In this document: one piece after another, positions 5,294-7,231 of the stretch | Layout of the letters: the number at the start of each line of letters is the position of its first letter | Numbering within the stretch: the first letter of the stretch is position 1 | Origin: a virus | Lineage: Duplodnaviria > Heunggongvirae > Uroviricota > Caudoviricetes | DNA: 18,376 nt | Reading direction: 5' to 3' (one strand) | IMG/VR virus record: IMGVR_UViG_2695420859_000010 | The notes under the pieces: generated by a model | The model's database searches: none | What the model saw: the letters and a program-made list of their open reading frames with translations, nothing else | Told to the model about the DNA's origin: nothing | Program-made: the position numbers and the translations under genes

Positions 5294-7231
5294 GTGACTC
5301 TTAAACGGGCCTGTTCCCTGCTGACGGTGAAATCCTTCAGTGAGGATGAACGGGTGATCACCGGGATTGCGTCAACGCCTTCTCCGGATCGGGATGGTGA
5401 CATCCTGGAGCCGGAGGGCGCGGAGTTTGGCAGTGCGATCCCGTTTCTCTGGCAGCATGACCATTCCCGCCCGGTGGGGCAGTGTACGGTACGCCGGGTC
5501 AGCGAAGGGCTGGAAATCACGGCAACACTGGTGAAGCCCGTACCGGATATGCCGTCGCAACTGGCTGCCCGGCTGGATGAGGTCTGGGCGGCCATTAAGA
5601 CCGGGCTGGTCAGGGGGCTGTCCGTGGGCTTCCGTCCCCATGAATACACCTTTCTGGACGGAGGCGGACTGCATTTTCTGCGCTGGGAACTGATGGAGGT
5701 GTCTGCCGTCACCGTGCCCGCGAATGCGGAATGCACCATCCGGACCATTAAATCTTACGACCGCCCGTTTTCTGCCGCGTCCGGCAACCGGAAACCGGTG
5801 GTGAAAATCGCATCTTCTGCCGGCGCTGCGGCACAGTCAACAACCGTTTTTCATAAGGAAAAGACCATGATGAATATTGGCGAACAGATTAAAAGTTTTG
5901 AAAACAAGCGTGCAGCGCTGGCAGCCTCCCTTGAGGAGGTCATGACCAAAGCCGCAGAGGAAGGGCGCACGCTGGATGTGGAGGAGGAAGAGCACTACGA
6001 CAACACCGCAGCGGAAATCCGTCAGGTGGATGCGCACCTGAAGCGCCTGCGTGAACTGGAAGCCGGTAAGGCCGCCACGGCGCAGCCGGTGAAACAGGCC
6101 GGTAACGGGAATGTGGCCGCGGTGGCTTCTGCGCCGGTGATCCGTGTGGAGCAGAAACTGGATAAGGGGATTGGCTTCGCCCGCTTTGCCAAATCGCTGG
6201 CTGCGGCTAAAGGCGTCCGATCTGAAGCCCTGGAAGTGGCCCGTCGTCAGTATCCGGATGACAGTCGTCTGCATCATGTCCTGAAATCGGCGGTGGGGGC
6301 AGGGACCACCACGGATCCGCAGTGGGCAGGCAGCCTGTCTGAATATCAGGAATACGCACAGGACTTTATTGATTACCTGCGTCCGCAGACCATTATCGGG
6401 CGATTTGGTCAGGGCGGGATCCCTGCACTTCGTCAGGTGCCGTTCAATATCCGTGTGCACGCCCAGGTGTCCGGCGGTGCTGCCGGCTGGGTGGGTGAGG
6501 GTAAGGCAAAACCTCTGACGAAGTTTGATTTTGAATCCATCACCTTCAGTCATGCGAAAGTGTCGGCCATTGCGGTACTGACGGAAGAATTGATCCGTTT
6601 TTCCAGTCCGGCTGCTGATGCACTGGTCCGTAATGCGCTGGCGGAAGCGGTGGTGGCGCGTCTGGATACAGACTTTGTGGACCCGAAAAAAGCCGCAGTG
6701 GCAGATGTCTCCCCTGCGTCCATCACCCATGATGTGAAGGGCACGGCATCAACCGGTAACCCGGATGCGGATGCCGAGGCCGCGTTTGGACAGTTTGTGG
6801 CAGCAAACCTGCAGCCCACCGGTGCGGTCTGGCTGATGTCCAGCACCAATGCCCTGGCACTGTCCATGCGTAAAAATGCGCTGGGTCAGAAGGAATACCC
6901 GGACATGACCCTGCTGGGTGGCTCCTTCCAGGGGCTGCCGGTGATTGTCTCCCAGTACGTGGGTGACCAGCTGGTGCTGGTGAATGCCCCGGATATTTAT
7001 CTGGCGGATGACGGCGGCGTGGCAGTGGATATGTCCCGTGAAGCATCACTGGAAATGCAGTCTGAGCCGACCGGCGACAGTACCACGCCGTCCCCGGTGG
7101 AGCTGGTTTCCATGTTCCAGACAGGCAGCGTGGCCATCCGTGCGGAGCGCTGGATCAACTGGCGTCGTCGCCGTACCGCGGCGGTGGCGGTGATCACCGG
7201 AGTGAACTACGGCAGTGCGTCCGGCGGCTGA
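5294..7231 (+). CDS. Prohead protease - major capsid protein fusion (HK97-type S78 protease domain, coiled-coil delta-like linker, HK97-fold capsid domain)
   Basis: N-terminal about 170 aa carry prohead-protease motifs (FLWQHD, GLSVGF, EVSAVTVPAN). A coiled-coil segment follows, then an HK97-like capsid domain (KPLTKFDFESITFSHAKVSAIAVL ... GLPVIVSQYVGD ... AVDMSREA). One continuous 645-aa frame. Confidence 0.85.
   Translation: MTLKRACSLLTVKSFSEDERVITGIASTPSPDRDGDILEPEGAEFGSAIPFLWQHDHSRPVGQCTVRRVSEGLEITATLVKPVPDMPSQLAARLDEVWAAIKTGLVRGLSVGFRPHEYTFLDGGGLHFLRWELMEVSAVTVPANAECTIRTIKSYDRPFSAASGNRKPVVKIASSAGAAAQSTTVFHKEKTMMNIGEQIKSFENKRAALAASLEEVMTKAAEEGRTLDVEEEEHYDNTAAEIRQVDAHLKRLRELEAGKAATAQPVKQAGNGNVAAVASAPVIRVEQKLDKGIGFARFAKSLAAAKGVRSEALEVARRQYPDDSRLHHVLKSAVGAGTTTDPQWAGSLSEYQEYAQDFIDYLRPQTIIGRFGQGGIPALRQVPFNIRVHAQVSGGAAGWVGEGKAKPLTKFDFESITFSHAKVSAIAVLTEELIRFSSPAADALVRNALAEAVVARLDTDFVDPKKAAVADVSPASITHDVKGTASTGNPDADAEAAFGQFVAANLQPTGAVWLMSSTNALALSMRKNALGQKEYPDMTLLGGSFQGLPVIVSQYVGDQLVLVNAPDIYLADDGGVAVDMSREASLEMQSEPTGDSTTPSPVELVSMFQTGSVAIRAERWINWRRRRTAAVAVITGVNYGSASGG

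Follow-up and report, generated by a model that had tools for sequence, protein, structure and literature searches.

How many proteins are read from a gene in which a prohead protease and a major capsid protein share one open reading frame (ORF)? We address this question for the ORF at positions 5294 to 7231 of a stretch of 18,376 nucleotides (nt; hereafter the window) from a Caudoviricetes virus (IMG/VR record IMGVR_UViG_2695420859_000010). This single plus-strand ORF of 645 amino acids (aa; GTG start, ~70 kDa) encodes a protease, a linker, a delta-like domain and an HK97-fold capsid domain, and at the boundary between linker and delta-like domain it carries an in-frame ATG preceded by a Shine-Dalgarno-like (SD-like) element. 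We find a start codon at this internal position in every unique fused relative compared at the DNA level, and we propose that the gene quite probably gives rise to two nested, C-terminally identical products, protease-delta-capsid and delta-capsid, both of which would be used in assembly. The fusion of protease to capsid protein is itself already known, having been on record since Stx phage genomes were annotated. The new part is the conserved, putative internal initiation site together with its two-product reading, which is present in no record or paper that we reached.

A conserved start codon inside the fusion gene

In the window, the junction sequence AAGGAAAAGACCATGATG (5855-5872) contains two in-frame ATG codons, at 5867 (codon 192) and 5870 (codon 193), and the GGA of the upstream purine element (5857-5859) lies 7 nt from the first and 10 nt from the second. 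An earlier note on this DNA, made from the sequence alone, had pointed to an SD-like element 7 nt before a tandem ATG at the point where the delta-like region begins; the element is present and in frame at these positions, and in an AlphaFold2 model the methionine pair sits exactly at the boundary between linker and delta-like domain. The tandem ATG proved to be a strain-specific feature, as phage BP-4795 and a 9916-member E. coli cluster carry ATA-ATG (Ile-Met) in its place, and comparison with relatives indicates that the conserved start is ATG 5870. Either codon could serve in this strain, 5867 on account of its 7-nt spacing and 5870 on account of its conservation.

All of 20 close relatives (~75% identity; Salmonella, Enterobacter, Klebsiella, Serratia, Pantoea and others) have M193 but not all have M192, and the 20-25 residues before M193 form the most variable stretch of the protein, with indels. 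A HMMER scan with aa 192-645 over 1.84 billion cluster representatives returned 5699 relatives, the best 150 of which (39-58% identity) were analysed. These include 106 fused proteins and 35 that start at the residue homologous to M193 (MNIAEQI..., MKTIAEQI...). A methionine lies at most nine residues before the conserved EQI motif in 97 of the 106 fused representatives, and in 73 it lies exactly four or five residues before it, which is where the unfused proteins start, against a background methionine frequency of 2.5%; six of the nine fused representatives without methionine have valine at the start position.

At the DNA level, we compared 80 loci from contigs of one genome per species across Alpha-, Beta- and Gammaproteobacteria (41-77% identity) and, as an independent set, 80 loci from viral contigs. 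A start codon occupies the internal position in all 74 unique fused loci of the genome set and in all 52 of the viral set (126/126), with a raw tally of 120 ATG, 3 GTG and 3 TTG. The five independent cases lacking methionine comprise three valines, all encoded by GTG, and two leucines, both encoded by TTG, an outcome with a joint chance of 4e-4 given the codon usage of each ORF. This restriction of substitutions to GTG and TTG points to the signature of a start codon, and not to a preference for an amino acid. Three related viral contigs (L146, L150 and L155) have the same in-frame stop within the delta domain (…NAFA*KSLDENRS…), with another stop further on common to two of the three; the shared stop could mark a pseudogene, a recoded stop or a common assembly artefact.

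Shine-Dalgarno signals and accessibility at the internal site

With the internal start as the point of alignment, anti-SD energy averages -7.9 kcal/mol over the family at offsets of -1 to +2 codons, compared with a background of about -2 to -3, and this dip occurs only at the internal site. Of 74 loci, 58 (78%; range searched -17 to -5) have an AGGA, GGAG or GAGG core at a distance of 6-11 nt from the start, whereas the frequency among 47,274 in-frame positions elsewhere is 7.5% (binomial p about 1e-50, for loci that are not independent), and the SD of the internal site ranks within the top 5% of its own ORF in 35 of the 74. The strength of the signal varies with lineage. Alphaproteobacteria and pseudomonads have AAGGAGGGC or GAGGAGGGC before the conserved start (about -12 kcal/mol), and these sites are usually the strongest of the whole ORF; Enterobacterales carry AAAGGAAA or AAGGAA (-5.6 to -6.2). 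The purine core GGA or GGAG is kept even though the peptides it encodes vary (KEG, PEEG, QEG, LEG, KGN, KGK, KEK, KKD), and where one of the five codons preceding the start encodes glycine, it is GGA in 47% of cases, compared with 7% in the rest of these ORFs.

Pairing predictions likewise mark the stretch from -18 to +6 as unusually open: the family median lies in the top 9% of the ORF, 38% of loci reach the top 5%, and the window falls in the top 6%. Compared with the genuine 5' start, the internal site is of similar SD strength and accessibility (median energies of -6.4 and -7.6 kcal/mol for the internal and 5' sites, respectively).

Relatives in which the two genes are separate

The protease and capsid genes are split by a stop or a change of frame at eight loci, four from genomes (L055, L058, L069, L075) and four from viral contigs (L084, L103, L136, L159), and the capsid gene then starts at the homologous SD and ATG (GTG in L084). 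The genes are likewise split in the Burkholderia phage vB_FUBS1, the Moraxella phage Mcat6 and the Stenotrophomonas phage SOVA965, where the capsid gene begins at the same methionine after an SD; the capsid N terminus reads MTIAEKIKQL in vB_FUBS1 and MKTYAEQIADLE in SOVA965, and in all three phages TerL, protease, capsid, a small ORF and portal follow each other in this order as separately annotated genes. On a tree of 154 DNA-verified loci, 146 are fused and the 8 unfused ones are scattered, requiring at least seven state changes under parsimony, and the nearest neighbours of each unfused locus are fused (47-76% identity). That unlinking has been tolerated repeatedly argues that the capsid needs a start of its own, such that its translation would not rely on the upstream start, with the caveat that some of the unfused prophages may be defective.

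A parsimony analysis of 141 representatives at 50% identity (31 changes, compared with 30.5 after shuffling) was rejected because the tree is star-like and many of its apparently unfused members may reflect the choices of gene callers. Where the genes are split, no rule governs their relative frame: the pairs are in frame at five loci, and out of frame at at least three loci and in three isolated phages. The variable tail that follows the protease contains a KPVVK-like motif (VVKL, VVQI, VRLI, PVVKT; window 5795-5815, aa 168-174) that is kept in fused and unfused relatives (L055, L069, L075, L165), and which may be cleaved or may act as a signal for targeting to the capsid.

A proposed pair of products from one gene

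Under the mechanism that we propose, two chains would be translated from one late mRNA. Initiation at GTG 5294, with its SD AGGAGG, would yield the 645-aa protease-linker-delta-capsid chain, and initiation at ATG 5870 (possibly also at 5867) via the internal AAGGA would yield a delta-capsid chain of 453 or 454 aa, the equivalent of HK97 gp5. A scan for predicted promoters detected no promoter-like site in 5100-7500, and so none within the gene, which argues for a translational device, unlike the promoter of herpesvirus UL26.5. The two chains would co-assemble into the procapsid through their common delta and capsid parts, and the full-length chains would bring the protease covalently inside without a separate targeting signal, since HK97-fold subunits have inward-pointing N termini. 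Once assembly is complete, the protease would cut off itself, the linker and the delta domains. Extending this reading from the window to the cross-phylum prophage family, we think it rather likely that the family as a whole is a two-product gene, whose full-length reading would deliver the protease on a subset of capsid subunits and, in some phages, an additional AAA+ ATPase with it.

The proposal of the earlier note that the internal SD and ATG act as a second start thus gains strong comparative support from some 126 loci and from the starts of unfused capsid genes, although the site is unremarkable in the window alone. Its further suggestion, of a few full-length chains and an abundant internal product, finds no support in the sequence, as the upstream SD is equal or stronger, and comparison of the ribosome-binding sites gives no direction to the ratio of the products.

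However, several observations weigh against a two-product gene. In the window by itself, the internal site does no better than chance and its SD is weak: the anti-SD duplex of -6.2 kcal/mol falls at the 13.5th percentile when every codon position in the ORF is considered, and an SD that is as good or better precedes 14% of the 50 other in-frame ATG, GTG or TTG codons. The elements of the enterobacterial clade are generally weak (AAGGAA or AAAGGAAA, as given above), and the 10 nt between GGA and ATG 5870 are at the long end of the useful range. Across the family, the full-length frame opens with an ATG whose SD matches or exceeds the internal one in strength; in the window, the element before GTG 5294 is far stronger than the internal one (-10.3 versus -6.2), an advantage offset only by the GTG codon itself and an overlapping ATG-TGA. 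The loci compared are phylogenetically related, so that enrichment p-values are inflated. By a rough volume estimate, 415 copies of a protease, linker and delta segment of ~290 aa would still fit a T=7 procapsid. Finally, public records for the gene family all annotate one coding sequence (CDS), and the accessible literature holds no proteomic, N-terminal sequencing or ribosome-profiling data on it.

Several of these points are what would be expected if all subunits were the 645-aa fusion made from GTG 5294, with the internal SD and ATG an unused relic of a two-gene state: the single CDS of every record, the weak and non-significant internal SD of the window beside a strong upstream ribosome-binding site, and the room that a T=7 shell offers, on the rough estimate above, to ~415 protease and delta segments. 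Yet a neutral relic should decay, whereas this start is kept throughout the 126 loci, at 41-77% identity and amid a hypervariable linker; it changes only to GTG or TTG, the SD core is enriched tenfold, glycine is biased to GGA, and a variant of 1094 aa with an additional AAA+ domain, described below, retains the internal site. We regard a single product as unlikely. Alternatively, both starts might be used without the fusion being a delivery device. The full-length chain would then cleave itself in the cytoplasm, and free protease would enter by means of a KPVVK-type tail, in the manner of HK97 gp4, so that fusion would merely couple expression. Unfused relatives do keep a post-protease tail of 35-50 aa with a similar VVK or VRL motif, which suggests a non-covalent targeting signal, but no cleavage site is known, and the predominance of the fused state among the DNA-verified loci (146 of 154) argues that covalent linkage is itself advantageous; we give this account little credence.

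It is also conceivable that motif and methionine serve a protein or kinetic role, as an SD-like pause between domains or as a Met, Val or Leu residue at the first turn of the delta helix, and not initiation. The position of the motif at a domain boundary and the chemical likeness of the three residues agree with such a role, which nevertheless leaves unexplained the fixed spacing of 6-11 nt between SD and start, the exclusive use of GTG and TTG for valine and leucine, and the use of the same codon as gene start in unfused relatives, and which we consider highly improbable. Initiation at both sites, with both chains entering the procapsid, is the reading that we prefer.

Domain architecture and genomic setting

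The presence of protease, delta-like scaffold and capsid protein in one 645-aa frame, as the earlier note had described it, is confirmed by domain matches, and the arrangement was already annotated in Stx phages. The protein belongs to the S78 protease family and the HK97 capsid family. Peptidase_S78 (Pfam PF04586) matches aa 48-152 with 34.8 bits (cut-off 21), and Phage_capsid (PF05065) matches aa 386-635 with 53.1 bits (cut-off 24.2). TIGR01554 (major_cap_HK97) scores 78 bits against a cut-off of 27.5, with its model position 3 aligned at aa 204. The narrower NCBIfam equivalog TIGR01543 (aa 48-154) reaches 46.5-49.5 bits, under its cut-off of 59, and NF045541, the NCBIfam model for protease/capsid fusions, failed with 54.2 bits against a cut-off of 525, matching only aa 48-287. 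H55 and S110, and likewise S137, do not vary among 71 sequences, although their correspondence to the catalytic residues of HK97 is putative, and a sequence search of the PDB with the protease part as query gave no significant match.

The AlphaFold2 model, built on 71 homologues, has a mean predicted local distance difference test (pLDDT) score of 85.6 and shows a compact protease (aa 18-154), a low-confidence linker (155-189) and two long helices (195-222 and 229-262) directly preceding the HK97 fold. For the shell domain, Foldseek returned the capsid proteins of Bxb1, D3, HK97 and T5 (E 3e-15 to 1e-9, probability 1.00). The coordinates of these and other features are collected in Table 1.

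Table 1 Features of the fusion gene and its surroundings in the window
Feature	Position	Strand	Basis or remark
Terminator-like hairpin with T-run	5255..5279	+	Stem 5255-5272, 7 pairs; between TerL stop (5230) and fusion gene
Shine-Dalgarno AGGAGG of full-length ORF	5283..5288	+	5 nt before GTG 5294; anti-SD duplex -10.3 kcal/mol
Full-length ORF	5294..7231	+	Translation, domain matches, predicted structure
S78 (HK97-type) prohead serine protease domain, aa 18-154	5345..5755	+	PF04586, TIGR01543, confident AlphaFold2 domain
Hypervariable, predicted-disordered linker, aa 155-191	5756..5866	+	pLDDT <50 at aa 155-189; indels; last codons hold internal SD
Internal Shine-Dalgarno-like AAGGAA (codons Lys-Glu)	5855..5860	+	7 nt before ATG 5867, 10 nt before ATG 5870
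First in-frame ATG, M192	5867..5869	+	Strain-specific; possible alternative start with family-typical 7-nt spacing
Nested ORF from ATG 5870 (M193), delta-like and capsid, 453 aa (~49 kDa)	5870..7231	+	Conservation, unfused homologues
Delta-like (scaffolding-type) helical hairpin, aa 195-262	5876..6079	+	AlphaFold2 helices; N-terminal part of TIGR01554
HK97-fold capsid shell domain, about aa 290-645	6161..7228	+	Foldseek; PF05065

The gene lies in the lambdoid late region of the window, which comprises TerS (3009-3572), TerL (3569-5230), the fusion ORF and portal (7443-8807). Portal thus follows the capsid gene, in the order TerS-TerL-[protease-capsid]-small ORF-portal (window 3009-8807; also L001, L082, L165, L166 and L167), and this order is kept across phages of E. 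coli, Pseudomonas, Burkholderia and Moraxella. TerL and the fusion ORF share a reading frame, with one TAA and 21 sense codons between them (5228-5293) that include the terminator-like hairpin, which is also present in BP-4795; a database protein of 1079 aa (P0001; 100% identical over the query) is a read-through call of TerL, protease and capsid. An ATG-TGA start-stop mini-ORF at 5292-5297 overlaps GTG 5294 and lies 3 nt after AGGAGG. It is identical in BP-4795, relatives from other genera start with a plain ATG, and it might lower or tune full-length initiation. An antisense ORF of 297 aa (5837-6730, minus strand) that spans the junction and delta region probably results from the GC richness of the coding strand.

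A variant with an AAA+ domain

Two database proteins of 1091-1094 aa (P0123, encoded at 3047-6331 of L167, and P0126) have an AAA+ ATPase (PF00004) placed ahead of the S78 protease and the delta-capsid part in a single ORF, and in L167 AAAGGA-N7-ATG is retained before MKTISEQI. A PADLOC scan of this variant gave generic AAA matches only (IetA, TRIP13), and its setting in L167 is a normal phage head module (TerL, fusion, portal) and not a defence locus. On a rough estimate, ~415 copies of the 620-aa N-terminal extension could hardly fit a T=7 shell, so that a diluting short form seems to be required here. In this variant the ATPase may thus enter capsids attached to the N terminus of the capsid protein.

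Distribution and existing annotation

The gene is 97-99.5% identical in DNA sequence to that annotated as 'putative major head protein/prohead protease' in long-tailed Stx1- and Stx2-converting phages. Near-identical copies are carried by BP-4795 (ORF56), 2851, YYZ-2008, JLK-2012 and many Stx1a and Stx2c phages, and 1255 of 5426 complete E. coli genomes contain the gene, often in multiple copies. The homologue of Pseudomonas phage PAJU2 (48% identity) is labelled 'structural protein; prohead protease fused capsid protein'. In the literature that we reached, subscription papers excepted, there is no report of internal initiation in protease-capsid fusions, and an earlier description is possible; leads to a CBASS preprint (the Bas13 protease-scaffold fusion), CapRel, ANT_H14 and Brucella phage papers were judged irrelevant.

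NCBI lists the exact 453-aa product from ATG 5870 as 'phage major capsid protein' with several accession numbers, and 132 contigs in the collection carry it. In all eight contexts examined (L168-L175), the upstream protease is cut off at differing points (112-193 aa) on short metagenome contigs, and these look like disrupted copies or assembly errors. We therefore rejected the 453-aa entries as evidence that the start is used, as they show only that gene callers choose ATG 5870. Judging by coordinates only, L171 has a shifted protease frame that would end on a stop overlapping ATG 5870, giving a predicted TGATG.

Implications if two products are made

If the gene indeed yields two products, the most abundant virion protein of common Stx-converting and other proteobacterial prophages would be described wrongly, as one product of 70 kDa, in thousands of records, and the second product would be missing from every genome annotation. 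Two starts in one frame would also provide a simple way of setting the ratio of protease to capsid protein without a separate targeting signal, with the capsid protein itself as the vehicle for loading cargo. An N-terminal fusion diluted by an internal start would then be a natural loading design that could be copied for HK97-like nanocontainers, and the AAA+ variant suggests that fusion and internal start have been reused in nature.

Comparison with known systems

The protease gene C of phage lambda contains an in-frame internal start for the scaffold Nu3, and the analogy drawn with this pair in the earlier note, with the difference that the capsid protein itself is involved, is apt. Lambda C/Nu3 and Mu I/Z resemble the fusion gene in having an N-terminal protease, an internal in-frame SD and start, and a common C terminus that mediates co-assembly. 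In those pairs, what the two products have in common is a free scaffolding protein and the capsid gene is separate, whereas here the shared part consists of delta and capsid, through the stop at 7231. The proteases also belong to different families (S78 here, ClpP/S49-like in lambda C). The fusion gene thus works like the nested pairs of lambda and Mu without being a member of that group, and is a distinct variant. The internal start of Mu I/Z, and its analogue in PaMx73 (an SD, 8-9 nt and an internal start), are described in PMC4378225.

With HK97 gp4 and gp5 the gene shares the S78 protease family and a capsid protein of HK97 fold with an N-terminal helical scaffolding domain. HK97 itself encodes protease and capsid protein in two genes, and a C-terminal tail targets its protease without covalent linkage. 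Gene order differs as well, being portal-protease-capsid in HK97, with portal also first in lambda, and TerL-[protease-capsid]-small ORF-portal here. The design of HK97, with the scaffold on the capsid protein, is treated in PMC10275583.

PAJU2 ORF003 is a true homologue, with 48% identity, the same gene order and an internal AGGAGG-N8-ATG, and records of fusions of this type annotate a single product and leave the internal start unmentioned. Protease-capsid fusions are stated to be 'common in small-genome siphoviruses', small actinobacteriophages included (PMC9671004), and the 'tripartite capsid gene' of the Salmonella phage Gifsy-2 is cited as a protease-capsid fusion in PMC12315714 and PMC8538268. 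The Gifsy-2 gene is similar to ours in that protease, scaffold-like middle and capsid protein occupy one ORF of a lambdoid prophage. This tripartite gene is reportedly the subject of Effantin et al. 2010 (Virology 402:355), and we identified no other fusion of this kind with published structural work. It differs in having no detectable sequence similarity (BLASTP E 0.15), a ClpP-like instead of an S78 protease, and a portal gene upstream; the two genes are analogous and unrelated in sequence. A candidate internal start, GAGGAG-N9-ATG, is seen at M221 of the Gifsy-2 ORF (L164 22471-24561), directly behind the ClpP-like domain, where a Nu3-like nested start would be expected.

A further parallel is found in herpesviruses, where UL26 and UL26.5 specify a protease-scaffold and a nested scaffold that are C-terminally identical and co-assemble, the short form being made from its own promoter and transcript. 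In the fusion gene the signal is that of a ribosome-binding site, with no promoter-like site detected internally, as opposed to the separate promoter of UL26.5. If two products are made, the nested-protease principle of lambda, Mu and herpesviruses would reach HK97-type phages, in which the scaffold lies inside the capsid protein.

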